This document shows, piece by piece, positions 1 to 36,600 of a DNA stretch of 64,000 nt (position 1 is the stretch's first letter; every line of letters begins with the position of its first letter). The DNA is from a virus (Duplodnaviria > Caudoviricetes): the IMG/VR virus record IMGVR_UViG_3300037067_010363, positions 4,609-68,608 of that record; one strand, 5' to 3'. The notes under the pieces are model-generated. The model worked only from the letters and a program-made list of their open reading frames with translations, did no database searches and had not been told where the DNA came from. Position numbers and translations under genes: made by a program.

Positions 1-24
1 TATAAACTTAAATAAAAGAATAAA

Positions 25-192
25 ATGAAAAAACTTTGGAAATGGTTATTTGGAACACGAAAGCAGCAATGCAATATACACGATGTTAGCAAATCGTGCC
101 CTTGCTGTGATGGTACTGGATATTGCGAAGGAGAACATTATGACGATTTACAAGCATGTTTAACCTGTGGAGGGTCTGGGCATGTTTGCTAA
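25..192 (+). CDS. 55-aa cassette protein with DnaJ-type zinc-finger motifs (not in ORF track)
   Basis: Hand translation: MKKLWKWLFGTRKQQCNIHDVSKSCPCCDGTGYCEGEHYDDLQACLTCGGSGHVC*. Two CxxCxGxG motifs; the TAA lies inside the GCTAAC box. Confidence 0.7.
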   Translation: MKKLWKWLFGTRKQQCNIHDVSKSCPCCDGTGYCEGEHYDDLQACLTCGGSGHVC

Positions 193-281
193 CGTTTTGC
201 GTGTTTATGTCAGGCGGACATAACACAAACTTATTTACTAACCGCAAGCTATCCGCCCGCTTGCATAAACACGCTGTTAGC
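188..281. repeat. attC-like site 1 (94-bp imperfect inverted repeat)
   Basis: GCTAAC 188-193 / GTTAGC 276-281; GCGTGTTTATG 199-209 / CATAAACACGC 264-274 (perfect 11 bp); GGCGGA 213-218 / TCCGCC 252-257. Confidence 0.8.
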
Positions 282-294
282 AGCAGTTTTAATT

Positions 295-516
295 ATGGAA
301 AACTTAAAAGGATTTGAAAAAGTGACAGATTACGCTTGGATGAAGAAAGGTAGAAAGTATTGGAATATTTGGTTGGGGAATCCTTTTTGCATTTCATTAC
401 ACAAAGCACCTTTATCTATACCAAAAAAAGAAATAGAAATGGATTTGATAACAGGGCAGCAAGAGGCAAAAAGGGATTTTGCAAAACGATTTCCAGAAGT
501 GGAATGGGTCGGCTAA
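295..516 (+). CDS. Cassette-borne hypothetical protein (73 aa)
   Basis: ORF lies between GTTAGCAGCAGT (276) and ATTGCTGCTAAC (518); AATT-ATG start context. Confidence 0.7.
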   Translation: MENLKGFEKVTDYAWMKKGRKYWNIWLGNPFCISLHKAPLSIPKKEIEMDLITGQQEAKRDFAKRFPEVEWVG

Positions 517-523
517 AATTGCT

Positions 524-652
524 GCTAACGGTTGATAATATATTACGTGCCGAATACAAGGCATAAATTTATAAATACTTAAAAACTTTGATATGAAAAC
601 AAAACTTAAAAAATGGCTACGAAGCAAGGCATGGAATATATTATATGTTGTA
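524..652. repeat. attC-like site 2 (about 129-bp imperfect inverted repeat)
   Basis: GCTAAC 524-529, 5-nt spacer, then ATAATATATTACGTGCC 535-551 pairing with GGCATGGAATATATTAT 628-644 (15/17), then GTTGTA 647-652. Same arm asymmetry as site 1. Confidence 0.75.
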
Positions 653-853
653 CGCAGTTATTGTGCGGTGGTAATGTATAGTATTGGAAAGAAACCAGCT
701 TGTAGCACCTTTATTGATGAAGTAAGCATAACTGCTGGATATGGTAAATTAAACAGCATTGGAGATTTCCAATACGATTTACCAAGATGGTGTATTCGTA
801 AGATGTATAAAGGTTGTACTAAATGGAGTGATTATTTAGAAAAGTGTGCGTAG
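593..853 (+). CDS. Cassette-borne hypothetical protein (86 aa)
   Basis: ORF starts inside attC-like site 2 and stops 4 nt before ATTGCGTACAAC (858). Confidence 0.7.
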   Translation: MKTKLKKWLRSKAWNILYVVRSYCAVVMYSIGKKPACSTFIDEVSITAGYGKLNSIGDFQYDLPRWCIRKMYKGCTKWSDYLEKCA

Positions 854-857
854 GCTA

Positions 858-882
858 ATTGCGTACAACTAGTTTATATCCC
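858..882 (-). other. Terminal half-site of the cassette array; candidate attI-like junction
   Basis: The ATTGCGTACAAC box is not followed by inverted-repeat arms. The minus strand reads GATATAAACTAGTTGTACGCAAT, loosely like the AAAC-nn(n)-GTT core of attI1. Confidence 0.4.
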
Positions 883-949
883 TTAAAAAAGTAATACTTT
901 TTAAAGCTAAATGTTTTAAAATCTAAATGTTAATTAAATACCAATTATT

Positions 950-1306
950 ATGAAAATATTTGAAAGATTAATTATATTATTAATTATTATCTTATCATTA
1001 ATATCATCTTATTTATGTATTAAATATAATAGTTCAATATTATATTTAAACGCATTATTTTGGCTAGATATTGGAATAGTATTAAATTTTATATCTTTAT
1101 TTGATAAATACAAAGTAATTGATAAAATATATAGTATTGTCTTAATAAACATAGCAGTTATATTTAATTATTTTATTTTAGAAGATACAATACATAATTA
1201 TCCTAAAATAACTCTAGCAAATGCAATTATTTTATTATTTTTGATACTTATGTATATAGGTATGAATTCAAAATATATAAATGTAGATAAAATAGATAAT
1301 GAATAA
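950..1306 (+). CDS. Hypothetical membrane protein (about 4 TM)
   Basis: Four hydrophobic stretches in 118 aa. Confidence 0.6.
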   Translation: MKIFERLIILLIIILSLISSYLCIKYNSSILYLNALFWLDIGIVLNFISLFDKYKVIDKIYSIVLINIAVIFNYFILEDTIHNYPKITLANAIILLFLILMYIGMNSKYINVDKIDNE

Positions 1307-1574
1307 AAGTGTTTCTCAATTAAAAAAAGAGATAATAAATAAAATATATGAAGAAATCAAATTAGAATATCCAAATATCACTAAAATTGAAATAAAAGCT
1401 ATTATTAAACATTTTGAATACAAAATGTCTTATTGGGTAAAAAGAGGAAAACCTATCGAATTGAAACATCTTTGTACATTGGGGGTTATTAAATATAGAA
1501 AAGTTAAACCAAAATACAAGATTAACTACAACAAACAATATATGCTGAAAAGAATTGAAGAAAGTTTTGACTAA
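1299..1574 (+). CDS. HU/IHF-like DNA-binding protein
   Basis: 91 aa, basic; KKEIINKI...ITKIEIKAIIKHFEYKMSYWVKRGKPIELKHLCTLGV follows the HU helix-helix-strand layout. Confidence 0.6.
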   Translation: MNKSVSQLKKEIINKIYEEIKLEYPNITKIEIKAIIKHFEYKMSYWVKRGKPIELKHLCTLGVIKYRKVKPKYKINYNKQYMLKRIEESFD

Positions 1575-1586
1575 AATAAATAAATT

Positions 1587-2081
1587 ATGAATATTCTAGA
1601 TTTTTATAATGGCTTTGCTATTGCAATGCTATGTGTATTTATACAAAAAATAATGTTTCCTGGTATGATCCTTAATTGGTATTACAATTTCCTTATGTAT
1701 ATAAAAGCTAATTATACTTGGTTAAAACATTTATCTTCACTATTAGGATTATGCCCTTATTGTTATGGATTTTGGATATTAGTATTCTTTAATTATTATA
1801 TATCAAATGATGATTTTATTATTAAAATGTTTAGTAGTTTCCCTATATGGTTATTGTCTTTATTATTAATAATTCAATTTACTGATGTAATATATGTAGC
1901 TCCATTAGATAACTATATAAATAAATACAAAGTTTATAAGATTACTGATACAGAAATAAAATTTATAGGATTACGTTCATTATTTTATATTATTAAGAAA
2001 AATGCTATACCAGTAAAAGATTTCAATAAAGAAGCATTTGAAAATGGTATTTATTATATAAGAGAATCATGGAAGAAGTAA
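1587..2081 (+). CDS. DUF1360-like membrane protein
   Basis: TM helices plus an LLGLCPYCYGFW motif. Confidence 0.55.
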   Translation: MNILDFYNGFAIAMLCVFIQKIMFPGMILNWYYNFLMYIKANYTWLKHLSSLLGLCPYCYGFWILVFFNYYISNDDFIIKMFSSFPIWLLSLLLIIQFTDVIYVAPLDNYINKYKVYKITDTEIKFIGLRSLFYIIKKNAIPVKDFNKEAFENGIYYIRESWKK

Positions 2082-2434
2082 TTAAAAAATGTCTTGAAGA
2101 TATGTCATGTTCCATACTAGATAAACCAACTCTAGAATTATATCTTAAAAATTCTATTTTTAATAAATTATTATTAGATGGAACAGCATTAACTCCTGAA
2201 CTAGCATTAGAAAGATATAAAGGATATGATAATTATTGGAATAGTCTTTATGGTACTAGGGATCCTAAATATATTGCTACAAAAGATAGGAAAATGGGAT
2301 TTTTTTCATTTCTTGTTAAAGGAGAATATAATAAAATTTATAAATCTGTAGCTAGACCTAAAGATACATATTTATTTGGTAATAATACTATAGAATATCT
2401 TATAAAAAAACTTAAAACATTTCTAAATGGTTAG
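2069..2434 (+). CDS. Hypothetical protein
   Basis: 121-aa ORF overlapping both neighbours in an operon-like run. Confidence 0.65.
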   Translation: MEEVIKKCLEDMSCSILDKPTLELYLKNSIFNKLLLDGTALTPELALERYKGYDNYWNSLYGTRDPKYIATKDRKMGFFSFLVKGEYNKIYKSVARPKDTYLFGNNTIEYLIKKLKTFLNG

Positions 2435-3800
2435 TATAATAGAACCTCAATTAATTCCTCAAGATATTAATATTGAAAAATATATACTTGGAGGATTACT
2501 AATAAACTTTAATAAACAAGTCATAGATACAATAGAATTTTTAAATGATAATGATTTTTATATTGATACACATCAAAAAATATTCAAAACTATAAAAATT
2601 ATTATTAAAGATATAAATACTATTGATTTAGCTTTATTAATTAATAAATTAAATAGTTTAAATTATTTAGATAATATTACTCTTGATGCTTCATATATAT
2701 CAAATTTAACCTCCAATATATCGTCTAATGCTAATCTTATTTATTATGCTAAAATATTAAAACAAATATCCGTTCAAAGACAAATACTTCTTTTATGTGA
2801 TTATTATAAAAATGAATCATATAAGAAAAATATTGATGTTGCAGATATAATAGATAATATAACTAAAGATTTAAACAAAATAATAAATGATTTAGATAAA
2901 GAATCGTTTAGTAAATCTAATTTATCTGTAGTAAAAACATTTTTTGATGAAAAAAGAAGTGTTAAAGGTAATACAAGGAAATTAGGATATGATAAATTTG
3001 ATAATGAAATTAAAATATCACCTAATAAGATAATCTTATTGTCTGGTCATGCAAAAGCTGGAAAATCTAGAATGATGTGCAATATTATGTTTCGTCTATT
3101 AGAAAATTATAATGATATTTCCGTATTTTGGATTACATTAGAAGATAGTGCATTTGATATTTTAGCTACATATCTCTCATATAAAACAGGATTAACTAGG
3201 GAAGATATAAAAAATAAAACCTATGATGATAAATCATTTGCATTAATGAAAGAACATATAGAAAGATTTAAAACTTTTGATATTGAATATATAGAAGAAT
3301 CAGCAAAAATATCAAAAATGAATTTGTTATTTCAAGAATTTTGCAAAAATAGAAAAAATAGATTCCCTATTTTTATATTAGATAATATACTTTCTATGTC
3401 TGATAGAGATGATTTTAAGAATAATGATAATAGTATGTATGATTATGTTATGCAAGAATCATTAAGAATAAGACAAAGAACAAAAGCAACTATATTCATT
3501 ATTCATCATTTTAAAGATAGTCAAATGGGTGAAAATAAATTAGAAATAGCATATCGCCCAAGATTAACAGATTTAAAAGGTACAGAAGCATTTAGAAGGG
3601 TCCCTAATCAAGTATTAATGATCAACTATCCTCCATTTCATAAAGACTTAATAAATGAATATAAAGGCGAACAACAAGAAATATTAAAACATTTATTATT
3701 AGTTGATTCTGGTGCAAATAGAGATGGTGGTACTGATGATGATTTTTCTATTATCAGATTTTTTGTTGATTATGGTAAAAATAAATTTATGGAAATATAA
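2427..3800 (+). CDS. dnaB: DnaB-like replicative helicase
   Basis: DnaB-N-like start (PQDINIEKYILGGLLI...DFYIDTHQKIF), Walker A GHAKAGKS, Walker B PIFILDN, and RPRLTDLKGT resembling RPxLSDLRES. Confidence 0.8.
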   Translation: MVSIIEPQLIPQDINIEKYILGGLLINFNKQVIDTIEFLNDNDFYIDTHQKIFKTIKIIIKDINTIDLALLINKLNSLNYLDNITLDASYISNLTSNISSNANLIYYAKILKQISVQRQILLLCDYYKNESYKKNIDVADIIDNITKDLNKIINDLDKESFSKSNLSVVKTFFDEKRSVKGNTRKLGYDKFDNEIKISPNKIILLSGHAKAGKSRMMCNIMFRLLENYNDISVFWITLEDSAFDILATYLSYKTGLTREDIKNKTYDDKSFALMKEHIERFKTFDIEYIEESAKISKMNLLFQEFCKNRKNRFPIFILDNILSMSDRDDFKNNDNSMYDYVMQESLRIRQRTKATIFIIHHFKDSQMGENKLEIAYRPRLTDLKGTEAFRRVPNQVLMINYPPFHKDLINEYKGEQQEILKHLLLVDSGANRDGGTDDDFSIIRFFVDYGKNKFMEI

Positions 3801-3979
3801 TGTTAGAAGAACAAATAAATTATTATTGGAAAAGTAAAAATGAAAATACTATTAAAAGATTAGCAGAATTAGATAATAATCATTTAGTAAATATTATTAA
3901 AAAAATATATAGAGGTTCTAATCTTAAAAAGTTTAATACATTGTCAAAAAGTAACATTTTATTAGGATTCGATGATTGA
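3800..3979 (+). CDS. Hypothetical 59-aa protein (not in ORF track)
   Basis: MLEEQINYYWKSKNENTIKRLAELDNNHLVNIIKK...; fills the gap with overlaps at both ends. Confidence 0.6.
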   Translation: MLEEQINYYWKSKNENTIKRLAELDNNHLVNIIKKIYRGSNLKKFNTLSKSNILLGFDD

Positions 3980-4418
3980 AATATATAATCCACTATTCAA
4001 GATTAAAACAAATAAACATTGTAATATAGATAAACAAATAAAAAATTCATTAAGTGCTGTTAAAGAAATTCAATGTTTATATGAAAAACATAATGATTTA
4101 TATATAATAGAACATAGTTTTCTAATAGTAATTAATAGAAATAATAAAATTATTAATATTTATATGATTAGCAAAGGAGATTATACATCTACATTTATGA
4201 ATCCAGTTATAATATTCAAATTACTTGTAGATAATTTAGCTAGTGCTTTTATTATTGCTCATAATCATCCATCAGAAAATTTGAAACCCTCTGATAGTGA
4301 TATAAAAATAAATAATAATTTAAAAGAGATAGGTAAATTGTTTAATATAAGTATGTTGGATAGTATAATTTTTACAAAAACCAAATATTTTTCTTTTGCA
4401 GATGAAGGTTTAATTTAA
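3972..4418 (+). CDS. radC: RadC-like JAB/MPN domain protein
   Basis: AHNHPSENLKPSDSD...IGKLFNISMLDSIIF...YFSFADEG matches the RadC HNHPSG..PS..D signature. Confidence 0.85.
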   Translation: MIEIYNPLFKIKTNKHCNIDKQIKNSLSAVKEIQCLYEKHNDLYIIEHSFLIVINRNNKIINIYMISKGDYTSTFMNPVIIFKLLVDNLASAFIIAHNHPSENLKPSDSDIKINNNLKEIGKLFNISMLDSIIFTKTKYFSFADEGLI

Positions 4419-4431
4419 AAAATAATTTAAT

Positions 4432-4632
4432 ATGAAAGAAACAAGAATTGAAACTAAAGTAATAACTAAAAATGGTAAAGAAGAAGATATTTCATTATTA
4501 CTTACTTCACAAACACAAATAGTCAAGTCTGGAAATAACACAGCAATATTATCTCCTGATTTAACAAATAACATTATAATAAAAGAAGATTATAATGATG
4601 TATTATTAATTATTAATAACTTAAATAAATAA
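4432..4632 (+). CDS. Hypothetical protein
   Basis: 66-aa ORF in operon. Confidence 0.55.
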   Translation: MKETRIETKVITKNGKEEDISLLLTSQTQIVKSGNNTAILSPDLTNNIIIKEDYNDVLLIINNLNK

Positions 4633-4636
4633 CACT

Positions 4637-6073
4637 ATGATTGAATCTTTTAAAGTAGATTTTTTAAATCACAAATTATTACAAGATACACAAGCTGAAT
4701 TTAAAGCTGGGAATTTATATTATATAGAAGGAAGTAATGAAAAAGGTAAAACTACATTTATCAATGCTTTAAGAAATCTTATTACAGGAAAAGCTAATAA
4801 AACAAATAATGTTACATATGGTCAAACAGATGGATATGTAAAAGGAGAATTTAATTTAATAGGAGGAAATAAAGAAAAATATATTATTAAATGGGATTTT
4901 ACCCAAGAGAAAAATTCTTTTGTTATTATTGATCCTAAAACAAATGTTCATAAATCAACATCAAGAAATAATATTGTTGCTGAGATATTCAAATATAATG
5001 ATTTTACTATTGATGAATGGTTCCAATGGGGTTTAACATCTGAAGGAAGAAGAAAACAAGCTTCTATATTATTAAATTTACTTCCTCCTGATATTCTTAA
5101 TAAATACAACAAATTAGAAGGAGAAACTAATACTACTTATGGCACTTTGTATTCTACAAGAACAAAAGAAAATAATATCTATGATAGCATAAAAATGACT
5201 TTAGATTCATTAAAGATTACAAATGATGATTTAGCCACAATAAAAAAAGAAAATGAATATAATAAGATTGTAGAAAAATACAACAGTAATAAAGTTTATA
5301 AATCAGAAAAGGAATTATTAGAAGTAAAATATAATTCAATAGAAGATAAAATTAAATCACTTAATAAAGAATTATTAGAAAAAGAAGATATACAAAATAT
5401 TAATAATAAAAGAGATAATGATTTAATTTCAGAATATCTAAAGAAAATAGAAGATTTACGTCTTAAAATTCAAAAAGATATTCAAAGTTTTAATGAATTT
5501 AAAGTTAATTATGAAAAGAATATTGATGAATGTAATAAAGATAAAAATAATATTAATATATTCTTAAATGAATATAATAATATGGATATTATTTCAGATG
5601 ATATCTTTAATAATGCTAAAACAGAATTAAATAAGATATTATTATTAAAAGATAAAGCAAATAATTTTACTTCTACTCAACAAAAGCTTAATACCCAATT
5701 TGAAATAATTAATAATTTAAATAATGAAATAAGTAATAAAAGAAAAGAAAAAACAGAACTATTATCATTAGCTAAACTGCCAGAAAATATAATTATAGAA
5801 GATGGTGAAGTAATGTATAAAGATAATGATAATATTATTCCATTTACAGAAAATAATGTATCATATTCAACAGGAGGAATGGTAATAGCTAAATTAATGA
5901 TTATGCTTAATAAAACATTACCTATTTGGTTATTTGGTAAAGCAGAAAGCTATGATACAAGTAGAATAAAAGAATTTATTAAATTAGCAGAAGAAAATAA
6001 TGGTATTATAATAATGGATAAAGTTATAGAAAATGAAAATATTCCATTATCAATTAAATGTGTTGAACTCTAA
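4637..6073 (+). CDS. SMC/RecN/SbcC-like coiled-coil ATPase
   Basis: N-terminal Walker A GSNEKGKTT, long central coiled coil, C-terminal YSTGG signature-like segment. Confidence 0.75.
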   Translation: MIESFKVDFLNHKLLQDTQAEFKAGNLYYIEGSNEKGKTTFINALRNLITGKANKTNNVTYGQTDGYVKGEFNLIGGNKEKYIIKWDFTQEKNSFVIIDPKTNVHKSTSRNNIVAEIFKYNDFTIDEWFQWGLTSEGRRKQASILLNLLPPDILNKYNKLEGETNTTYGTLYSTRTKENNIYDSIKMTLDSLKITNDDLATIKKENEYNKIVEKYNSNKVYKSEKELLEVKYNSIEDKIKSLNKELLEKEDIQNINNKRDNDLISEYLKKIEDLRLKIQKDIQSFNEFKVNYEKNIDECNKDKNNINIFLNEYNNMDIISDDIFNNAKTELNKILLLKDKANNFTSTQQKLNTQFEIINNLNNEISNKRKEKTELLSLAKLPENIIIEDGEVMYKDNDNIIPFTENNVSYSTGGMVIAKLMIMLNKTLPIWLFGKAESYDTSRIKEFIKLAEENNGIIIMDKVIENENIPLSIKCVEL

Positions 6074-6084
6074 ATTTTAAAATT

Positions 6085-6723
6085 ATGGCACTAGATGAAG
6101 GTAAATCAGGTCTTATTTATTTAACTATAAAAGGACTTAAAAAAGATGCAGAGAAAATTTATATTGAAAAATATGAAGGGAAAAATGTTGAAGGGAAACA
6201 TTATAAATCTGTTGAAGGCAATCTTGTTAAAATAACATTTCCGGATAAAGAATATGAAAGTAAAAAATATAAAGGATGTTGTATTTATCTCAAAGATAAA
6301 GATGAAACATATGTGTTAAAAAGTGGATTTGATAAAATTACTAATATTATTCGAAGTATATTAAATCAAATTCTAAACCTTAAATCTTTTGATAATATAA
6401 AGATAACTGTTAAAGGTGGAGAAAATGATTATAAGAATGCTTGGGTATCTCAAAATGATAATAAAGCGGGATTTTATCTTTCATTAGATGAAATTAATGC
6501 TTTGATAGAAAAATATACCATTAATGGAGATACTGTTAAATCTTATTCTAAATTAGATGAAAGATTTATAGAACTTGTAGAACTTTCTATTAATTCTGTG
6601 TTGAATTGTAAAAATAACGATATAGAAAATAATAAACCTGAAATTAAAGACAATAAAGTTGTAGATCCTATTCAAAGTCTTTCTGATGAAGATGATTCTA
6701 ATATTGATAATTTACCATTTTAA
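6085..6723 (+). CDS. Putative single-stranded DNA-binding protein
   Basis: Acidic C-terminal tail DEDDSNIDNLPF typical of SSBs; lies in the recombination cluster. Confidence 0.6.
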   Translation: MALDEGKSGLIYLTIKGLKKDAEKIYIEKYEGKNVEGKHYKSVEGNLVKITFPDKEYESKKYKGCCIYLKDKDETYVLKSGFDKITNIIRSILNQILNLKSFDNIKITVKGGENDYKNAWVSQNDNKAGFYLSLDEINALIEKYTINGDTVKSYSKLDERFIELVELSINSVLNCKNNDIENNKPEIKDNKVVDPIQSLSDEDDSNIDNLPF

Positions 6724-21652: not shown

Positions 21653-24600
21653 TTAACATATTATTTGTAATCCTTTACTTTTTAAATCATTCTCTATATT
21701 TTCTTTAGTATACAATAATTCATTTTCTACTGTATCTCCAAACAAATATCTTAAACTATCATTTAAACTATTTTCATACATCTTAAACAATGACCATAAT
21801 TCTGATACAATTTTTTTATCTTTAAATTCATATCTATTATTATTCATTAAAAAATCTCTAACATTTTCTTCTGATTGAAATCCAGCTATAGTTGCAATAA
21901 CTTCACTAATTAATGATTCTAAATTTAATGAAATTCTGTTTTGTTTATATTTTTCTTTTATTGATAAAACAATGGGATTATTATTGTTTATTAATTCTAT
22001 TGCATCATTTCTTAATTGACTATATTTTCTTGGATTTACTTCTTTCAAAGCCTTTTCCCACATATGGGTTAGTTCATGTATAAAATCTGTTGATAATACT
22101 CTATCTGTATTTATATAAACAACACCTTTCAAAACAAATGCTCTAGCTTTAACATCATCACCATATAATCGTTTTACTTCTTCATCATTTGTTTCTACTA
22201 TAGTAACATCTTTTATTTTATTAGATATATGGTTTATTAATAATCTAACTGCATCCCTATTTAATTTAATTCCTTCAAATGTTTTTAATTCATCTAATGA
22301 GAATTGACTATTCTTTTTCAAGTTTTCAATTTTCTCTAAAATCTGCAAACTTTCATTATTTTTTCCTACCTTTTTAAATTCACAAACAGAAGTAGTTTTC
22401 CATATAACTTTTAATATATCCCCTGTTTCTGTTATTACTTCCTGTTCATTCATATATGTATAACCATTATGAAATGTATGTGAAATAATTTGACCAGGAA
22501 GCATTGTTTTTATTTTTGCTAACTCAAAACCTGAAAATATTCTTGTCAATTCTATATCAGTTATATTGCTTTGTGAATTAATATCAGTATCTATTTCTTT
22601 ATTTAATAACCAAAATGCATTGTCTTTATCATATCCAAATCCTTCAAGAAATGTGAAGTATTCTCTCATATAATTATATCTTGCTCCTGTATCCTTTATT
22701 TTAATTCTTTTTACTTCATGTAATGATTCACCTGGTTCACTTAATATACTTTCATTTTGTCCATGAATAACAGAACCTTGATCAGAAAATTGAATTGCTC
22801 TTAATAATTTTTCAGATATTGTTGTAACAAAATTTTTATCTTTTAAATTCATTCTTGTTGCTTTTATGGAATCTGAAAATTCAGTTAACCAATCTATACC
22901 CATAACATGCATTATGGAGCCATTTTTAAACTTTAAATTATGTTGTATTATTTCATAATGTTGAAATAATGTTTTAAGCCATGGTGTAAACTTTGCAAAT
23001 TCATCCTGATATAATTGCATATCTTGTTCATTTATTGCAGCAGAATTCCTCAATATTAACCTTTCTGAAGTATCTTGTCCTATTATTTCTAATTTTTTAA
23101 TAAAACTACTATTCTTTAATAAAGATAAATCATTAGATGTTAAATCTATTTGTTTGTATTTTTTAATCATTTCTGAATAACTCATATCTTGAATATCATT
23201 TAAAAATTCTTTCATGAATTCTGGCAAACATTTAGAATATAACTTCCTTCCCTTTGAATCAGATAAATCTATATTTGATAAACCAACTATATTTTTAACT
23301 GGTTCTCCTAATATTTCATTGAATTCTAAAAATGACAAATCTACATTTTTATTTTTCAATGATTTAAAATATACATCTTTAAAGATTTCCATTATATTAT
23401 TGTAGAATTTAATTCTTCGTGATTGAAAATCCCAAGTCCTTAATTCCATACTATTTAAATACACTTGTTCTATCTGTTTGAATACTTTATTATTAATATC
23501 CCAATGTTCTGTATTTGATTGTTTTTCAAACGCACATAATTTTAAACCATTTTCGATATGTGGAAACTTCTGAACTAATGCTTTTATGTTCCCTAATTTC
23601 GCTATGTCTATCTCTCTTTTAATTATCTTGTTTGTTAATTTTGTATCTCTTGGTCCATTACTATTACTTGCCCTACGACGTTCTAAATTGTCTGCTCTTA
23701 AATATTCTGTACTATGTTCTTTGAAAAATTCAATATGTTTTTCAAGTGACCAATTAAATGCATCATAGTTTTCTAAAAGACTTCCTATTGATAATTCATA
23801 ATTAAATATATCCCTTTCAAATTCATAGTCATTTACTTTAATACCATTTCTTAATGATATAATATCACCAAATCTTTTAATAAATGCTCCTTCATCTAAA
23901 TATTGACTTAATGTATTTAACGAGTTGATACTTTCTTGACTATTAATAATTTCATTCATCTTATTTATTTCATCTTGAATGGCTATTATTTTATCTAATA
24001 AAGAGTTATCATCTATTTCTATTGACTTCTCGATTATATTATCTATTTTATCTTCTAATGATATTTCTAATTGATTAGCTTGTTCAATATATCTTTGTCT
24101 TTCTTCTTCATCGAAATATTTTTTCTCTTTAACTTCTTTCTTATTTTTTTCTTTACTTTTTCTATATTCAGATATTTCTTTTTGTGTAACATCAATTACA
24201 GAATATAGTGTATCAAGTTCATCTATTAATTGATTTTTTTTGGTTAAAGCTTTATCAATAGATGATTGATCTAAAGACATTAATGATGCTAATGTATCTT
24301 CTATTATGTCTTTTATTTGATAATCTTTTTTCTTATTGTCTATATTTTCTCCTTTTTGTGATTTGCTAAATACTTGTTTTATTGCAGGAGAATTTAAATA
24401 TGTTTTTATTTTTATATTTGACCAACCATGTAATATTAATATAGTCACTAATGATGCGTTTGTTTCATTAATGCCATATTCTCCTAATAACATTTCTTTT
24501 GCATTATCTAATGCTATCTGTAAATAATCTCCTATTCTTAATGGAATCCCATTATTGCCAGTTTCTAATAACATATTTTCGATAAATGCAAAACCAGGCA

Positions 24601-27600
24601 ATATTTTTTTAAATTCATTTATGTCTGTTATTTGTAACATATATGAAATTGTACTTAATGATTTTGCAAATATGCTTATAGTATCTGATGCAGTAGAAGA
24701 TGCATGATAGTTCTCAACAAATGTAGCAAATGTCCCACTTCTTAAATATTTATAATTATTCTTCTGCTTATCAAATTCATTTTGTTCTTCTTTACTTAAT
24801 GCTTTATATTCATCTGTTTCTTTAATTTCATGTAAAGGCATATCAACAATACTTCTTAAATCATCTATATTAGAATCTATTAATATAGCTTTATGATTTT
24901 CTTTATTGTTGTATATATCATATATTGATTCCAATATATAATCTTGTAATTCTTCATATGTATTTATTTCATCTATGTCTTTTAATGTGCCATTTTCATC
25001 TCTTACTTCATTGTACGTTAAATTATTAGATATATATTTAAAATAAGCAGATAATTGGTCTATGTCAAAGTCACTATCATTCAATACAGTCAATCCTAAT
25101 GGTATATATATGTTATTGCCATTATCTTGCACAAATCCTTTTATTCTTGCTTTTGCCCCATATCCTAATCTTGATGTTGGTATACGAACTAAAAACATAT
25201 CTAAAGCTTTATCAAGTGCTTTATAATATTGTTTCATATATTCTATTGGATTATATGAAATATTAATTTTGTCTGCTAAATTTTCAGGTATATAAAACGC
25301 ATCTTCTTCTTCATTGTAAATATATCCTTTTGCGTTAGCATATTCTATTTTTGCTCTTAATATATCAAAATCGTCAAATTCTCGTTTGCTTATAAATCTT
25401 TTTAGATTTGTTCTATCTTCGTAGATAGGATCTGATATTGACTTATTAAAATCATCTAATACTAATTGATTAGCTTCATTATTAGCTTTAACATATTTCT
25501 TATTATTTTCTTTATAATATATCTTACGTAAAAATATATTACTTCTTTCGTCTAATAATGTTTTATCTTTTAAGAATTCCTCCATTTCGGGAGTAAACTT
25601 ACTATCTTTTATAAGTAATGTACCATATTTACCTGATTTATCTTTATAATGAATAGTTAAAGCATCTGTTAATGTTTCGCCTTTTTCTAATTCAAAATTT
25701 TTAAAATATGAAAAACTTACAAATACTTCTGCTTGTTTCATAGTATTATCACCTGACTGCATAGATTCTAAATCTCTTACTTTATAATCTTGATATACGC
25801 CAGAATTTACAATATCTACTAACTCTTTATTTGTAAATCTTCTTCCTAATCTATTTTCTATATCCTTAATTGTTAATGTTTCATTATCATTTTCAAACAA
25901 TTTAAATCCATATCCTGATGCTTGATTTAATCTTGTTCCATACATTTTTTGTCGTAATGAACGTGATGTTAAATAATTTCTTAATAATTGAACTATTGCT
26001 GTTCTATACTGTGGTATCTGAATGCTTAATTCTTTATTATTTAATACTTCTGCTAATGAACCGGAATACTTACTTCTATTTATTGAATTTAATGATAAAT
26101 TTCTAACATATTCATCGAAGTTTTTATTCATCTCTTCTTTAATTGGCTCTATTTCTTTTTCATATATTTTGCTAAAAGCTTTAAATATACGTTCAGCTAT
26201 TTGACTATTTTCTTTATTATTAGAACCTATAAATGATAACAATTGATGCATCACTTGTACGTTCTTTGTTTCTTCTACATCTTGATTTGGATTTAATACT
26301 AAACCTATTTCTTTTGAATTTAATGTTCTTGTAACTAAATTCATATTCCTATTAACACCAGTAAAATCATATTGATTTATTCCTGTTTCGTAACTTTTTA
26401 CTCCACTCTTATATTGAAAACCCCAAATCATGTTATTTTTTATAATACCTTTTAATCTAGGATCATTTATATTGTTTATATAGTCAAACATATAATCAGC
26501 TACTAAGTCTAAATCATTTAATTCTTTCATTTTAGAATTAAATATATCTAATAATGAAATATTATAATTTACAAATTTATTATTTGCATCTATAAAACAT
26601 TCTTTATCCCATGTAAGTAATATATCTTCCATATAAAGACGATACAAATAATTGTCATTGTATGTATCACTAGTAATAACATCGTCAGCATGTTTAATAA
26701 TATGTCTTTCTCCTGTAGCGTAATCTGTGTAATTAGCCATAGTTTTATACATCTGTTTTCCTGTAGGAGCATTTTCAAATCCTCCAAATGATTTAATTAT
26801 AAATCTATTTGCTATTGGATTACCTACCATTTGTCCATCTGCAATTCTAACTTTTTTACCTGTAACTGGGTCATTTATATATTTCTCTTTATTTATACCT
26901 TCATCATCAACAACTATATATTTCATTTTAGAACTTACACCATTTTCAGTATCAGGAACTAATTTGTTTTTTGGAGTTACAAATGTGTGTTTCCTTTTAT
27001 TCTCATCTAATTGTGATGAATACTCTTGTCTATCACCCCAAAATATAGGATTGAAATTTTGTGCATTAAGAAAATAAGCCCAATATTGTGCTTTAAAATA
27101 ATCATTCACAGATTTATCTTTATTGAAGAAAGGACTTTCTTGTCCTGTTAATTTTGCAACATCTTCAGATACTATTACATTGTTATTATAATAAGCTGAT
27201 ATGTGTCTATTATATTCATTTTTAAATAACTGTTCTATATATTTTATTTTACTTTCTAGGTTGTCTAATGATTTCCATTTATTATATGTCCATGTATTAA
27301 ATATTTTGTCGTATTCTCTTAATCCATATTCTTTACCATTTATTTCAGCTTTAACTTCTGAATTCATAGATGTTGCATATCCTAATAAGAAATATTCTTC
27401 ACCAAATTTTTTTGTCATTACAAAATCTTCATTACCATGTAGATATTTCTTTGCTTCATAAATAAAGTTATTATATTTTTCTTTATTAGACTTTATGTTT
27501 TGAATAAAAGAATATAATGTTGTTTCAAACATTTTTATATTATCCTTTTCAAATAATTCAGGATTTGCTAATAATATTAATTCATCAGAAGTTAATATTC

Positions 27601-30600
27601 CATTTTCTGATAATTTTTTAATAAAGACTTTCCATCTATTAATTGAAACAACTCTATTTCTTTCATACCTATCAAAGATTTTATCAAGATGTTTGCTTAA
27701 TACTTTGTAATTGATAATTACTTTAGATATTTTATGTTTGTCTAATACTACATTAAACAATCTTTCATTTCCTGTTCCATCAATAGTAAATACTGCTTCA
27801 TATATTTTAGTTTTATCTGATATATTGTCTAATAAAACACTTAATGTTTCCACTTTATCAGAAGCGGATTTTACTAAACTCGTATAAAACAATTCATTAA
27901 ATGTAATTATAGCATCATGTGTATTTGGAGATACTACAGACTTATTAGATGATATTCCAGTAAATTTATTTACTCTGTATAATCTTGTAGAAGATGATTT
28001 ATCTAAATAATCATAAAGAGGTTTTCCATTAGCATCAAAATATTTAGAGTTGTCAATATCTGACATATCAATTCTTGATATTTCTTCTTCTATTATACTA
28101 GAACCATATTCTTCAAATTTGTTTAAATCATCTCTTAATTGATATTTATATTCTTTAGTATTGTCAACTCTATATATGAACATTAATTTATCATCAGGTC
28201 TATTACTTATTTCTCTATTTGCTAAAAATGTTAAAAATCTATATAGGTCTGTTGGTTTATGAATTGTTTTTACTTCGTCAAGTATTTCTGTATTTTCATT
28301 TAATATAATTTTAGACATTGGATCAACTATAGCCTTTTCTCCTAACTTAGAATAATAAGAATCTATTAAATCTTCAACATATTCTAATTCAGATAATTTA
28401 TTCTTATATTCAACTATTGATATATTATTATTTTTTAAATCATTATCTAAGTCTACTTTTACTTTTGTTTCATTATAATAATATTGTAATGTTAAAAACA
28501 TAGCAGATATACTTTCAGCCATAAAATTTTTAGCATCTTCTTTTTCATTCTGTGATTTATAATTAGGGACCTTTTTTAATAATTCAAATTGTATCTCTTT
28601 ATTATCTTTTAGTAAATCATTAAATGTTATTAATGAAATAGATTTTTTCAAACCAAATAACGCAAGTATTTCTTTGGCATATGTTTCATTATATTTAAAA
28701 TATTCATCTGTAAAAAAAGCTTTTATTCTATTATTGTCATCTTTTTTATATTCTAATATCTTTATTTCTTTACCTTTTACATTATAATAAACACCATCTT
28801 GTTTAACATTAAATTTTCTGTATTTATTATTCTTGTCTATTTTAGATATAATATGATTTCTTAAATCGCCATTTATATCAAATATATTATTCTCTATATT
28901 GTCTTTTAAGAAATTCTTAAACATTTCATCATCATTCTTTGATAATCTTATAATGTTTGCAACCTTTTTATGTAATGCATGATTATATTCCATCTCTATT
29001 TTTACTACTGATGCTTCATGCAAATTCATAAAATTGCATATTATATGAGTCATAAAATTTTCTATTGCCACTTTCCTTTCAGGTATATTTGTATTCTTTT
29101 TTAAGTTTTTTAAACTTAATGAGGAATAACCATTGACTATATCTGGAAGTCCATACATTCTTTCTAATAAAGACATTGCTGCATTAAATCGTGGTGTATT
29201 TGGTTGTAATGATATAGCATAATTATATAACACTTTTGCAAATTTATCTTCATATGAATTTCTAGAACTATTATTTAATTCTAAATTCAAACTATCTGTA
29301 ATAGCGTATAAAATATATTTAATTTCTTTCGGACTACAATATGAACTATTATCCCATCCGTTATTTTTTATTGATGTAATCTTTCCATTACTAAAACCTA
29401 CTGTATATGTATAATATGGAACTCCTTCCATAAACATTTTAAGATTATTAGATATTTGTCTATCTGCATTAAATTTACTTTTATCATATAACGCAACATC
29501 ATCATGTTTTACTTCAAATATTTCATTTAAAATAGGATCTATAACATCATCAAATGAAACATGATATGCAAAATAGTCTTGTAATACATTGCTGTCTTTT
29601 GCTGATTTAGCCTCTGTGTATGTTAGTTCAGATAATTGTTTATTATATTCTTTAACAATTTTTACTCCTAGTAATCTAAATGATGAATAATGATTTTTTA
29701 CTTTATTTATTACTTCTTCAATACTACCTACATCTTGATCCATACTTCTTCCTAAATACGAAAAACTTAAACATGTTCTTGATAATGATGTCTTTACTCT
29801 TTCTACATCATTGCCAAAATATTTAGACAAATGCGAATATTTTAATTTTTGGTTTTCATGTTTACTTCTTTTATCATTTGACACTTCATCGTCTAATATA
29901 GCATCAGAACCTTCAATATCTAAATCACCTTTGATGTTATATGCTACAGTATTACTTAATTCAAAATGTGGAGTTTTATTTACGAAACTACCACTATTAA
30001 TCATTTCATATAATTCTGTTAATTTTGTAGAATGATAAAACCACTTACTTACTATATTCTCTAACCAATCAAAAAATCTTCTTATTATTCCTGTTTTAAC
30101 ATTCTTGTCTGTACGACCAAACTTTCTAGCCATCCATTCTTCTGCATCAGTTATATCAGTTATACCAGTTATATTATTAACTTCTTTTAATAATGTTTGT
30201 TGTTCTTCTTTTGTTAGATAATATTTAAATATAACATGGAATATTTCATGTCTTACTGTTGGTTTGTCTATTCCCATCTTTGTAAGTTCATAATATATTT
30301 TACCATTTAATACCATTCCAAATAAATCTATTCCATCATGAGTTAATTTATCTCTAGTAATAACTCTATCAACCCATTCTTCTCCTAATAATTCTTTTAC
30401 AATATTTAAAGCTTCTTGTTTTGCATAACCATATTGAGCTAATGACATTCTTCTTCTATTAAAAGCCACAGTTGCAGCACGAACTCCATTTTTATTTTCT
30501 TGAAGTATATAGAAATAAGAAGGATGATGTATATCAGTTTTTTTCCCTATTGTTAATTTCTCTATATCTAAATCCGATATTTCACCAGATTTATTTTTAG

Positions 30601-33600
30601 ACATTCTATCTAAACTTATTGAATCATACAACATAGTGGCTTCTTGTTTAGAAGCATCTATTTGCATTAATTTCTGTAATTCAGTTAAAAATATTCTTGT
30701 TGCTGTTAATTCACTTATTTTCCCTTTTCTTTTTATTTGATTATTTTCAAATTTAAAATATTTATTAAACAGTTTAATTATTTCTGCAGTACTAGTATTT
30801 TCAAATTTACTTTTATTTTGTTTTATTATTTGTATAACAGATAATGAATTGAAAATTTGTGTTGTAAATTCCTGTTTCGATAAATTTGATATTGTAGATA
30901 AATCGTCTTGTATTTTTTCAAGCAATATATCTCCATTTATCTTTTGATTATTTAAAATGACATATGGTGAACTATTTGATATATCATTTCCTATTACACT
31001 ATATTGCATTATTATATTTACTATTCCTTTAATTTTTCTTGTACGAATATTGCCAAATTTTATTGCTGGATATTTCTCTTTCATTCTTGTTTTAAATTCT
31101 TCAACTCTTTCAGTTTCATAATTATTAAAGTCGAATATAGTATTGCCATCAATTATTTCTGTTTGTGCAACTTCAATGGGACCTAAATTAATAGGTCCAT
31201 TTTTATGCTTTGCTTGATCATAACCATTCTTTCTTAATTCAGCTAATTTTTTATTTAATTCTTTTAAATTTGGATGTAATTCAAAACCATTATCTATTGT
31301 GCCTTGTATATTATCATCATCCCAATTTTCAATTATTTTCTTCTTACCATTTTCAGAAGGATAATCTGTTTCAACATCTTTAAGAACAGATACATATCTT
31401 AATAATTCTTGATTTGTATCAAAATTCTCGTCAACATAATTATACAATTTTGCATTTTGTGGATCGTCTTCATAAATAGCACGTAATAAATCTTCTTTTG
31501 TTCCATTATAATATATTGCTAATGCAGAATCTCTTTTTTCTGCATCTATCAATTGAACATCGTTTAAATAATGAACTTCTAATTTATCACTAAATTTTGA
31601 TGATATTAGTCTATTTAATTCTCTTTTAAGTTTAAGAAATTCTTTTTCTGATATAGTTAATATTGTCTTATTACCTATATCTATGATTATTGTATAACTA
31701 CTACCCCATACTACATTTATATCTTTTAAATTTGATGCTATCCTATTTGCGACTGTATATACTTCTATTTCCGGTGATTCATCATGATATTCTATATTAT
31801 CTAAAAATTCATTTATTGGAACATCTTTTCCATTATTTAATCTAATAATAATATCTTTTTTGGTATTTATTGAAAATGCAATAATTTCCACTTCTTTACC
31901 TTCAAACAAATATGTATCATTTTTAATTAATCTATAATCTTTAGATTTATAGTTGTGTGTTAAATCATTTATATTTAAATCGCTTAAAGTATTATCTGTT
32001 AAAGATGGCAGATTTTCCTTTTTGGGTTTTAATGATTCTTTATATTTATCATAATCATCTTTTGTAGCTGTTCCATCTATATATATTTTAGGAATTGTTA
32101 TTTCATCTTTATTTTCTAAAATTATTGTACCGTCTTCAGATATTTCTGTTATTAAACCTACTTTCCCATTATTATATTTAACATATTGTCCTACGCTATA
32201 TTCTGATTTTCCGGATGTGGTTGTTTTTTCATATATTATCTTTTTTAGTAATATATTTTCATCTTCTAATACAGCTATACGACTTTTTTCTTTTTCTTCT
32301 TCGCTTCTTAATTTTTCCTTATCTATGTCATCTATCCACCATTTAGGCTTATCTACAAGATTATATTTATTCATTCCAGGTAATGTTAAACTACCAAATG
32401 ATTGTAATCTTCCAAAAGCAGTATAGAATAATGCTTTTATTGAAGCAGGGTATAATTCATATTTTTCAGGATTGTTTTTTAATTCTAAAAAATCTAATGC
32501 TAAAAATATGTTACTCTTTCTTAATCCTTGTATCGAAGGTATTTGATTGTTTATCTTTTCTTGTTGCAAAACAAATATTCTCCCTGGATAATCGCTTAAT
32601 TTTACTTTGTCCTTATATTGGGCATATTGTTTTTCATTTATAAATACTAATACACCATCTTTGCTATTAATAAATTCATTAATAACCTTTTCAATAGCTG
32701 TATTACTTGTATCACCTTCTACATATTTTACTCCTCTTTGTCCATCATGATACATATTTGGCATTACTTCTTTACCATAACCCATATATGATATTGTCCA
32801 TGTCTCAACCCATTGTTCTATTAATATATTTATAATAGGGTCGCTATTTGAAAATACTTTTGTTAATGGTATAGTTCGTAATCCTGTTCTTTCTCCATAT
32901 CTTATTGAATCATTTTGCGTAATATCGAACATCTGTGATGTGTCTCCTACTAATATCAATCGTCCTTTGTAGTCTTTTAACGCTTCTTTTATTTCCATTA
33001 ATTCATCTAATGACAATATTGATGATTCATCAAATATTATTATATCATTACTTGTTAATGATGATGGGTCATTTCTTATTGCATCTAAGAAAGCTTCTTT
33101 TGTTTTTAGAGTTTTTTCATCTTTAAACATATCAAAATATTTAGATAATGAATTCCCTGTATTATCTAATACTTCATTTGATAATCCGGCTAATAATATC
33201 TTCATCTTGCTATCAGTATTGTTTTTTTGTTTATATAGCTTATTATATATTAAAGCATTAACCAATATTTGAACTGACTTTCCGGTACCAAATTTTCCTC
33301 TTAAGTTTAAAGTATTTTTAATATGAATATTAATATTTTTTGTAGATTTATCTTTATTGTATTTATGATAAAATGTTTTTTCTGCTGCAGTTGCTTTCTT
33401 ATCGAAATTTTCTTTTTCTAATTCTAAAGCAATTTCTAATGGTGAACTATTAGTATTTAAAAAAGAAACTATTGTATTTTCACTTTCTTTTTGTTCTTCT
33501 GTAGATGGTGTTATGTTATTATCAAATACCTCACTTCTTATTATATTTATTTCATTAACACTAACCCCTTTTAATTGACACAAATAATTTATTACATATA

Positions 33601-36600
33601 CATATACATTTCCTTTAGCAATATTTTGTAACTTTTGATTTGATATATTATTATAACCTAATTCAAAGAGATTATATAAAAGATTAATCCCATTATTATC
33701 TTGGTCTTTTGCATATAAATAACCTTCTCCTATTTTTAATGAATTATTTTTATTAAAGTATGTCCTTTTTAAATATTCTTTAATAACATCATCGGATAAT
33801 ATTGTTGAATGTTCTATTAGATAATCTTGAATCTGATTTAAAATAATTTCATTGTTTAATATTTCTGTCTTTTGTGATTCCGGACAAGCTATATCTTCTT
33901 CAGGTATTTGCTTAGTTGGTTTTAATTGTTTCAATAATGCAACTAATTCAGGATGTTTATCTGAGCCGTCCGCTATATATTTTTTAAATAAATTTTGTAA
34001 TATTAATATTTTAGCATTTTGATGTATGTTTTTGACTTTAAAATTAAATTCTGTTGTTGTAATTCCTAATGATTTTAATTTATTTTCTAATAAGGCTAAA
34101 TTTTCTTTATTTCTATCTAATATTCCATCTATTTTATTTAACAGTTCATCAGATAATGCTACTTCTTTGCTAGATGTATGTTTCTCTAATATTTCGGTAT
34201 TTTTATTTAATGCTCTTTTTACATCAGTATATACAGAATATGATTCTAACTGTTCTTTATATTTATTTAATAAATCTTGTAATTCTTTTTTGTCTGGTAC
34301 TTCTTTAGTTATTGCTACATTAATATCATTTTCTAATTGACTGAATAATAATTCAAAATATTCTAATAATCTAGTTTCTTTTGATTTTTCATTTTGTTTT
34401 GCTTCTAATGCATTTAAATAAGTGCTTTGCACTTTTTCAATATCTTCTAAATTATTTTGTAAATCTATTTTCTTTTCATAATTTTCTGCATCAGTAGGAT
34501 CAACATATAATTCATCATTAATTTTATTTAATTTGTTTTTTATAATTCCTAACTGTTCTTTTATTTTATCACTAATCAAATCTATTTCATTAATATCTGA
34601 CATCTTTGTAATAGATAATAGTTTATCTTTTATCTCAGCAACATCATTTTCATTTGTATTTTCGTCAGGTATAGATGCTATAATTCCGTTTAATGCATTT
34701 TCTATATTATTAGAGTATTTGTTTCTTTTTTCTTTTTCATAATTGCTTATATTTTCTATTTGAATGGCTATTTCTTTTTCTAATAATTTTGTAAGAAAAT
34801 AATTATCTTTCATCGAAAGTGTCTGAAAATTTACAGCTATTTCTGCATAATAATCTTTTTTATTATCTTTAGTTTTAGTTTTACCTTCTTTTTTCCATCG
34901 TTCATCAACTACTGATTTAGCTAAATTATATGCTATATAATTACCTTTTATTCTATCATTAACATACTCGGGATTTTCTGTGCCTTCTTCTATAGATGTA
35001 AATTTCTTTATTATATCTTTAAGTCCGTCTTGATGAACTACTTTATCAGTACCTTCATATTTATAATCGAGACCATTAATTTCTTCTTCTAATTTATTTT
35101 TTTGTTCTAATAATTTTTTGTGTTTATCAGAATCTTTTTCTTCTCCCAATAAATTATTTATTTGTAGCAATTCTTTTTCTTTATCTTTAATAAGCTTCAT
35201 TGCTTTTAAATATTCAGAGCCAAAATCTACATTAGATGATACAATATTAAATAAAGCTGTATTTCCTTTACTTTCTTCATATATATCATACAAAGCATCT
35301 ATAGTTGTCTTTAAATCATAATACAGTTTATCGTTTAATGTTTCTACTCTGTTTGCATTTCTTCCCTTTTTTCCTGGAATATTAAAAGGAATATCAAAAG
35401 ATTTATCTTCATCTTTAACAATAGTTGAACCATCAGGATTTAATTTGCTTAATTCTTCATTACCTTCTTGGTATTTATTATATAAAAAAGTCATAAGGTA
35501 TTCTTTATTAGCTCCTTTATTTTCAATTATGAATTTCCTTATATCTTTTTCTAAATTATTGTTGCTATTTCTCCATATTGCACCACCAATCATACCTCCT
35601 AATCCTCCTAATACCCATGATGACATCATTCTATTTGAGAATTCTCCATATTTGTGATTATACAATCCTTTGCCATATTCAGCTTTTGGATCAGAATTAG
35701 ATTTTATAGCATTAAATATTGATTCTTCTACCCAATATCCGAATTCTTCTGTCGTTTCTTGAGTTGATTCTTTCGTAAATCCACTTGTTATCCCATAAAC
35801 ATAAGGATGTTTTTCAGCCATTACTTTTTGCCATTGAGTATCACCTTTGAGAGTTTTAACAAATCCTTTCATAAAACTTGTTGAATTTTCAAAGGTGCCT
35901 AAATTACCATCATAATTTTTTAATGATTTATTTAAGAGATTTTCAACAACTTCTTTTGCATCAGATGTTAATCCTTTTGTAAACAAATCAGCATCAATTA
36001 ATCTTTCTGAAATCGCAACCATAGGAAATGCAAACAATGTCATTAATGCAGATTCTCCATCAGTTAAGCCATTTTGTTTCGCTGATTGAAATGTCGGTCC
36101 CATCATTAACCATCCACCTATTCCTGATGCAGTCCATTTTAATGCATTCTCTGACATGCCTAACCCTTTAGTAAATAATTTGGCTGCTGTTTGAACTCCA
36201 GCAGTCATTTCACGCTGTACAATAAGTGATGCTAATACATTAGCAACACCAGCACCAAAAGCTATAGGATTATCATTCCATTCCGAATCTTCATATTGTT
36301 CAGATTTTTGAGGTCTTAATTTGTTTATAAATGCTAAATCTAAGTCTGCGTTTCTACTAAAACTACTATCAATACCTAATTTTTCTAATCCTACACCTAT
36401 CAATTTATTTACAGTAAAATACATTTGAGGTATTGCTGTTATTAAAGAATAATTAAATTCATCTAATATATCAGAAACACTTTGGTCGTATTTTGTATTA
36501 TTAACAAATGTTCCAGTTAATCCTTTAATTGAATATCTATCATCTAATTGTAGGGAAGTACCAGGTTCTACTATAACTTTACCAAATTCTTGTGTTTCTT

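Follow-up and report, generated by a model that had tools for sequence, protein, structure and literature searches.

The window analysed here is a 64,000-nt stretch of a Caudoviricetes record (IMG/VR IMGVR_UViG_3300037067_010363; linear, 68,608 nt, estimated 77% complete), of which it covers bases 4609–68608. Because the window begins at record base 4609, the array region at its start has 4.6 kb of contig to its left; this additional DNA was examined as locus L005 (contig 1–6500), and window coordinates equal contig coordinates minus 4608. PHROGs named the head, portal, and terminase genes of the phage. The terminase has its nearest named relatives, no more than 24–30% identical, among Crassvirales and crAss-like phages whose hosts are Bacteroides, Flavobacterium, and Cellulophaga, and “distant crAss-like phage” appears to be a fair label. 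The helicase gene flanking the array found no relative when used as an IMG/VR query, and cultured phages gave matches of only 20–23% identity. Elsewhere in the window, one ORF of 5,168 aa spans positions 21653–37159 on the minus strand.

Nine cassettes tile contig 2469–5477 (window −2139 to 869) without gaps. Those in window 1–882 are the last three of the nine, and the array extends 2.3 kb leftwards outside the window. GC content is 33–43% over window 1–900, compared with 14–24% to the right of or beside the array and ∼20% in the phage outside it, which bears out the remark in the first-pass annotation that this segment is richer in GC than its flank.

All array features within the window lie on the plus strand. 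The window opens inside hairpin site S6 (contig 4577–4693; window −31 to 85), whose 3′ two thirds fall within it (1–85). The 3′ arm of S6 is AGCAGCAATGCAATATAC, its loop carries the ATG (window 25) of the ORF in the following cassette, C7, and its site family occurs on other viral contigs at 91–93% identity with different flanks. The body of C7 (86–193) is bounded by the boxes GTTAGCAAA (86–94) and TTTGCTAAC (185–193), and its ORF (25–192, 55 aa), which takes its start codon from the S6 loop, contains CxxCxGxG zinc-finger-like motifs. Site S7 (194–275, or 191–278 with the flanking cores) consists of the spacer GTTTT and the arms GCGTGTTTATG and CATAAACACGC, followed by 1 nt and then GTT; it forms a 13-bp Watson–Crick stem and includes the sequence GTTTTGCGTG. 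Cassette body C8 (276–529) lies between the boxes GTTAGCAGCAGT (276–287) and ATTGCTGCTAAC (518–529), holds an ORF of 73 aa (295–516), and terminates in ...GCTGCTAAC. Site S8 (530–646, or 527–649 with the flanking cores) has the spacer GGTTG, the arms ATAATATATTACGTGCC and GGCATGGAATATATTAT, a 15-bp stem, and an AT-rich loop carrying the ATG (593) of the ORF of C9 (593–853, 86 aa). The body of C9, the last cassette of the array, occupies 647–869, with boxes GTTGTACGCAGT (647–658) and ATTGCGTACAAC (858–869). The first-pass annotation had reported three cassette-specific box pairs and two inverted repeats with the layout AAC, 5 nt, arm ... arm, GTT (S7 and S8), and all of these were recovered at the positions given here. 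Its description of three ORFs flanked by the box pairs needs amending: the pairs are real, but the ORFs at 25–192 and 593–853 start in the preceding hairpin loop.

The complementarity of the cassette ends extends through the array. Seven of the nine pairs of 12-nt end boxes match fully, with 10–11 Watson–Crick pairs, 1–2 G:T pairs, and no mismatch; the exceptions are C2, with one mismatch, and C7, in which pairing runs over 9 nt. Defining a strict box pair as at least 10 Watson–Crick pairs, the remainder G:T, and zero mismatches, we counted 7 in the 3.2 kb of contig 2301–5500. Dinucleotide shuffles averaged 0.11 and never exceeded 1, and the remaining 63 kb of the genome have 1 per strand. The earlier statement that the two ends of each cassette are complementary to one another is thereby upheld. 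Box pairs also covary, reading GTTAGCAGTAGT/ATTACTGCTAAC in this phage and GTTAGCGGTAGT/ATTACCGCTAAC in locus L098.

In five of the nine cassette ORFs, the start codon and the first 17–21 residues come from the hairpin loop and 3′ arm (leaders at window 25–87 and 593–649, and at L005:2904–2956, 3264–3326, and 3975–4025). These ORFs read through the 3′ arm, and the GTT core is in frame as Val in every case. The leaders are basic (e.g. MKKLWKWLF..KQQCNIHDV), and the “KQQCNI” string, which is set by the DNA arm, also occurs in Polaribacter phage Freya_10. Homologues of the cassette ORFs are 72–96% identical and of equal length, with changes mostly at third codon positions, and on this comparison the ORFs look like genuine genes evolving as coding sequence. 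Pfam, PHROGs, and the protein atlas returned no function or family for any of them. Homologues of C9 at L202:90–440 and L203:2290–2570 (78–86% DNA identity) keep the 3′ arm and GTT box, but neither the 5′ arm nor the ATTGCGTACAAC box at the cassette end is present; these homologues may represent cassettes in decay or, alternatively, ordinary genes that gave rise to a cassette.

The array closes in an attI-like end (867–898) that reads AAC|TAGTTTATATCCC and continues into the conserved tail AAAAAGTAATACT; a paralogous copy is found at contig 115–154. A second array end occupies contig 1–135, its last 40 nt being 83% identical to window 859–898, and reads AAC|TAGTCTATATACC (contig 123–135); in L005:1–343 this second cassette array continues past the left end of the contig. 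The motif AAC|TAnnATATATA, hereafter the docking motif, is thus present at both array ends of this phage (contig 123–135 and 5475–5490). It stands downstream of the last cassette, and the cassette ORFs read towards it. Beyond the two motifs lie a 61-aa ribbon–helix–helix-like ORF and a 118-aa membrane ORF, and no recombinase. The 61-aa ORF, which follows the motif at contig 123–135, matches phrog_25647 (E 2.5e-6). An exact-pattern scan for the phage's own 32-nt array end gave no match.

Hairpin sites and the unit they belong to

On the coding strand, the sites share a layout of AAC, 5 nt (mostly beginning with GG), an arm of 10–20 bp, a loop, the second arm, 1–3 nt, and GTT. The span from core to core (AAC to GTT) ranges from 80 to 123 nt across the nine sites, with main size classes of 80–82 and 116–118 nt; two sites fall outside these classes, S4 at 107 nt and S0, at the far left, at 123 nt. 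Of 363 sites in related loci, 226 have a 5-nt spacer. AAC and GTT alone are invariant. The first-pass annotation had likened this layout to that of integron attC sites, and the likeness holds for size, attC sites measuring 57–141 nt, and for the AAC and GTT cores but not for the RYYYAAC/GTTRRRY consensus: GTTRRRY is matched by one of the nine GTT boxes, the consensus at this locus being GTTAGC. A search of contig 1–6500 against Rfam at E values up to 10 gave chance matches only, with no attC match and none at threshold.

The stems show compensatory evolution. Between S4 and its homologue in L098, 6 of 17 stem pairs have changed on both sides and none is broken, and between S1 and two homologues the same applies to 5 of 19 pairs, again with none broken, a pattern indicating that the hairpin structure is under selection. 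Where stem pairing is imperfect, the coding strand almost always shows G:T, and when folding energy was computed for both strands, the coding strand was more stable than its complement in seven of the nine sites. Across the stems of the 363 sites in related loci, there are 570 G:T against 157 A:C on the sense strand. Together, the G:T excess and the more stable sense-strand folding suggest that the sense strand, as DNA or RNA, is selected to fold, and the excess would fit structure in the mRNA too.

Sites and cassette bodies uncouple, one site family preceding unrelated ORFs, as with Vibrio VCRs. The sites are free of T tracts, and neither promoter-like matches (12 versus 14.2 expected) nor terminator-like matches (4 versus 2.0) are enriched. 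Two other kinds of repeat were considered and rejected. REP elements, raised as an alternative in the first-pass annotation, and MITEs are excluded by a repeated unit that contains an ORF and by cassette-specific ends. An invertible segment is excluded by an inverted repeat that differs from cassette to cassette and by ORFs that are all co-oriented.

Direct BLAST of the array identified units shared with other contigs. S4 with C5 (contig 3911–4216) matches L098 118–421 at 78% identity, starting at AAC|GG and ending at AAC|G, and its neighbours there are unrelated on either side. S7 with C8 (window 194–529; contig 4799–5137 including the flanking AAC) matches L200 2048–2385 at 89% identity and is also found in L201; in both of these metagenomic contigs it is solitary between unrelated genes and bounded by AAC, and the differences lie chiefly at third codon positions. 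A match in L016 covers C3 and the 3′ half of the site upstream of it and ends at AAC. A comparison of cassette bodies requiring detected sites on both sides provided one informative pair only. As judged from the shared stretches, the mobile unit is a hairpin plus the ORF after it, not an ORF plus the hairpin after it. A unit of this kind accounts for the five of nine ORFs that begin within the preceding loop, for the complete hairpin at the left end of the array, and for the bare AAC in which the rightmost cassette terminates.

The lone unit of S7+C8 type in L200 (region 1700–2440) precedes an SNF2-family gene. The ∼40 nt that follow it (ACCGATATATGCGAACAAATTACA...) occur a second time ∼670 nt further upstream, ahead of the adjacent gene (101 aa), an arrangement resembling the duplication of a docking sequence.

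Recombinase genes and related loci

Six other viral contigs contain the site family of S2 and S6, as revealed by a 19-mer from these sites, and in each the cassettes on either side are different. The array of contig G004 ends in ...GGTAAC|TATACTATATATG, and the gene for a 267-aa tyrosine recombinase (P0001) begins ∼55 nt further on, on the same strand. The sequence of P0001 includes the catalytic motifs GLRVSE, HTLRHS, LGHSS, and EIYTH. With Pyrococcus XerA (4a8e) it can be aligned from one end to the other; its alignment with Vibrio IntI4 (2a3v) splits at the IntI-specific segment, where 30 residues face 78, and on the integron integrase model TIGR02249 it scores 161 bits, below the cut-off of 265. 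These alignments point to an enzyme in the relatives that is short and Xer/XerA-like and lacks the IntI-specific segment. The IntI-like recombinase postulated at first pass was therefore partly correct: a tyrosine recombinase does adjoin such arrays in other phages, but it is of Xer/XerA type and falls below the integrase cut-off.

At least 228 stretches in IMG/VR encode relatives of P0001, and the best 80 of the 228 are 60–86% identical to it. We applied a hairpin-plus-core detector to the 38 loci that have 6 kb on both sides of the recombinase. On the recombinase strand, 210 sites were detected upstream of the gene versus 16 downstream, and on the opposite strand the counts were 21 and 10, respectively. 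AAC followed by TAnnATATATA or a close variant stands directly upstream of the recombinase gene in all 38 loci.

The 68.6-kb record contains no tyrosine recombinase according to PF00589, TIGR02249, and tblastn with P0001, and no member of the serine recombinase and Y1 transposase families searched. Extending the sequence leftwards, as the first-pass annotation had proposed, added six cassettes and another array end; a recombinase was not found anywhere in the record. Two near-complete array-bearing phages, G002 (100%) and G003 (95%), also have no recombinase.

Bacterial relatives of P0001 are at most 51% identical to it. Arrays of the same layout, with self-complementary cassette ends, were observed in bacteria (L154:8500–12500, L184:7700–12200, L119:7700–12100, and L179), the carriers being Flavobacterium saccharophilum DSM 1811 (L154), Desulfitobacterium sp. 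Sab5 (L184), and several MAGs. Their sites read AAC–5 nt–arm...arm–3 nt–GTT, and the arrays are located downstream of, but on the other strand from, a recombinase of 347–385 aa (42–51% identical) that passes NF040815 (“tyrosine recombinase/integron integrase”) and not TIGR02249.

Weaker relatives of the enzyme (36–39% identity), annotated as integrases, are encoded by Polaribacter phages Freya and Leef and by Cellulophaga phage Ingeline. Freya_1 and Freya_10 are 99.7–100% identical around the integrase gene, and Freya_10 has 4,942 extra bp inserted exactly at ...TTGTTTACAAC|ACCCCTATAAC... (AAC|ACCCC), ∼50 nt ahead of the integrase start codon. The extra block begins with GGATA and an S2/S6-family hairpin, followed by GTTAGCAGTAGT, and ends in ...ATTGTTGCTAAC|. 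By its boundaries, the block is the product predicted if units are inserted at the docking motif by a crossover within AAC or immediately after it.

The closest relative of the locus itself is L204, a 6.2-kb contig whose helicase protein is 89% identical. It is collinear with this phage at 79–93% DNA identity (84% over the 5.2-kb helicase side) and lacks contig 1429–5516, a 4.1-kb block comprising three AT-rich ORFs, the nine cassettes, and the docking motif; this whole-block difference equally fits homologous exchange. L205, a more distant crAss-like relative (helicase 46% identical), carries, in the same region of small genes, its own array built to the same design and ending in ...GGCAGGTAAC|TCACTTATATATAC, with no recombinase within the 21 kb examined. 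Since L204 lacks the block and L205 has an array of its own, relatives differ at this locus, in the present case by an entire block. An AT-rich ORF of 130–133 aa ending in ...MFGxxDLExLK occurs in both crAss-like phages (L205:2690–3640 and L005:1681–2082); it lies between cassettes in L205 and, in this phage, just left of the array, inside the block missing from L204.

The suggestion at first pass that the phage carries an accessory-gene platform of integron type gains support from single cassettes that recur with other neighbours and from an array that is present or absent between close relatives. As for the variation at the level of cassettes that it anticipated among related phages, the comparison yielded recurrence of units and presence or absence of the array, but the closest relative differs by the whole block.

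Interpretation and alternatives

We consider it likely that the window begins with the distal part of an integron-like cassette array of the kind carried by Bacteroidota phages, and that the array is an orphan here. The sequences show the anatomy of the array, the covariation of its stems, the mobility of its units, the link to a recombinase, and the insertion at the motif in the cultured Freya phages. Each unit consists of the 5-nt spacer, the imperfect hairpin, and the GTT box, followed by a single small ORF and the complementary box with its terminal AAC. The chemistry, the exact position of cleavage, the strand that folds, and present activity we infer as follows. Once such a unit is free and circular, its two boxes would flank the hairpin and form one long folded site on the sense strand. 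A Xer/XerA-like recombinase would cut within or just after AAC and insert units at AAC|TAnnATATATA, the downstream end of the array. Because the recorded 77% of the genome contains no recombinase, the array is regarded as an orphan, CALIN-like, and it could be served in trans by a co-infecting phage or by the host. Alternatively, it may have been inherited as a block and now be static, or the enzyme may be encoded in the ∼23% of the genome outside the record.

The array may instead have been built by the recombinase system of another phage, arriving and staying here by homologous recombination as a fixed fossil, an explanation that would differ from the one we favour in present activity only and that we regard as somewhat unlikely. 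The record without an enzyme, the presence or absence relative to L204 of a whole 4.1-kb block that includes three AT-rich, native-looking ORFs, and the two paralogous array ends adjoining unrelated genes would all agree with a fossil; boxes and stems are, however, intact in nine of nine units, with no decayed sites, and 23% of the genome lies outside the record. A host origin, in which the array would be a fragment of a host-chromosome integron (CALIN) and any movement would be due to the host integron integrase, strikes us as improbable. Bacteria do have same-layout arrays beside relatives of the recombinase 347–385 aa long (e.g. L154 and L184), the cassettes are richer in GC than the phage, and IntI1 recombines attC sites of virulent phages (Qi et al. 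2023, PMC9892861). Yet the sites and cassettes have their closest counterparts on viral contigs or on short metagenomic ones, and the site family adjoins a phage-type recombinase that is 60–86% identical among the best 80 of 228 relatives, versus at most 51% in bacteria. The polarity of the ORFs and the position of the docking motif are, moreover, reversed relative to a canonical integron, and one of nine GTT boxes fits GTTRRRY.

A role confined to RNA would place the hairpins in the transcript, where they might serve small early genes in processing, stability, or translation control, and would make the locus an ordinary hyperplastic moron region, PeSL-like and free of site-specific recombination. 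The strong sense-strand G:T (G:U) excess in the stems would fit such a role, as would the five of nine ORFs that begin in the loop and continue across the 3′ arm, and the difference from the nearest relative is a single large block. We nevertheless judge this role highly improbable, as it leaves unexplained the complementary ends, the exact AAC boundaries of shared units, the association of recombinase and docking motif, and the Freya insertion; promoter- and terminator-like matches are not enriched, and no Rfam family was found.

Beyond this locus, and returning to an array of mobile cassettes, we put forward as a tentative but serious possibility that one pool of hairpin cassettes extends across unrelated Bacteroidota phages, including crAss-like podoviruses, Forsetiviridae such as Freya, and contigs of up to 360 kb. 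Its cassettes would be moved by a Xer/XerA-like recombinase acting on sense-strand hairpins, and enzyme-less arrays would be loaded in trans at co-infection. The system would then be a viral equivalent of the integron whose origin did not involve the IntI-specific domain. If true, this would explain the exchange of fast-changing small “early” genes in many Bacteroidota phages, which probably serve host takeover or counter-defence, and hairpin borders would become a handle for finding such genes. It would also offer a direct test of whether the IntI-specific domain is needed for folded single-stranded sites. The window contributes a crAss-like, enzyme-less example and bears on the service of arrays in trans.

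Relation to known systems

In textbook accounts, bacteria gather and rearrange accessory genes by means of integrons, which are thought to need IntI. The array described here resembles them, especially sedentary chromosomal integrons with their Vibrio VCRs, in its tandem one-gene cassettes, imperfect hairpin sites, and AAC...GTT cores. Further points of likeness are the asymmetric unpaired spacer, the complementary cassette ends, the site families common to unrelated ORFs, the docking site that in relatives adjoins a tyrosine recombinase, the existence of orphan arrays, and a cargo mostly of no known function. The differences begin with the enzyme, as the recombinase of the relatives lacks ∼48 residues where IntI4 has its specific segment. 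The boxes are 12–16 nt long here rather than 7, without GTTRRRY. The docking motif lies downstream with the ORFs reading towards it, whereas attI lies at the promoter end with the ORFs reading away. The cut is placed 5′ of the hairpin at AAC rather than 3′ of the hairpin at G|TT, and the wobble bias is on the sense strand, whereas in canonical integrons the antisense (bottom) strand folds. Some cassette ORFs here also start in the hairpin loop. With nine tandem sites and no recombinase in 68.6 kb, the locus resembles a CALIN, a likeness that holds only if the sites are counted as attC-like.

Integrons and 17 CALINs have been found with IntegronFinder among 10,705 phage genomes, and IntI1 was shown to recombine attC sites of virulent phages, including Polaribacter phage P12002L (Qi et al. 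2023, PMC9892861). Those clusters share with the present array integrase-less recombination hairpins in virulent phages, a flavobacterial phage among them; they differ in that no crAss-like phage, Xer-like enzyme, or phage docking motif is mentioned. Our search of the published literature on attC in crAss-like phages or Crassvirales and on phage integrons found nothing closer than Qi et al. 2023, and no paper that describes a phage Xer-like cassette system.

In function the evidence supports an integron-like array; by enzyme, consensus, polarity, cut side, and probably folding strand, it is not a canonical integron. Two further systems invite comparison. The PeSLs, reportedly described by Arbiol et al. 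in 2010 as mobile regulatory cassettes of T4-type phages, are similar in that small novel ORFs in a hyperplastic phage region each have a stem-loop module and are shuffled between phages. They differ in comprising a promoter and a terminator-like stem-loop, in moving by homologous or illegitimate recombination, and in lacking end pairing, AAC/GTT cores, and a dedicated recombinase; the promoter and terminator stem-loop per ORF of PeSLs and morons is not a feature of this array. In pdif modules and IMEX elements, small gene modules are moved by Xer-type tyrosine recombinases; these rely on double-stranded 28-bp dif-like sites and host XerC/XerD, whereas the units described here are built on long, folded, tandem hairpins.
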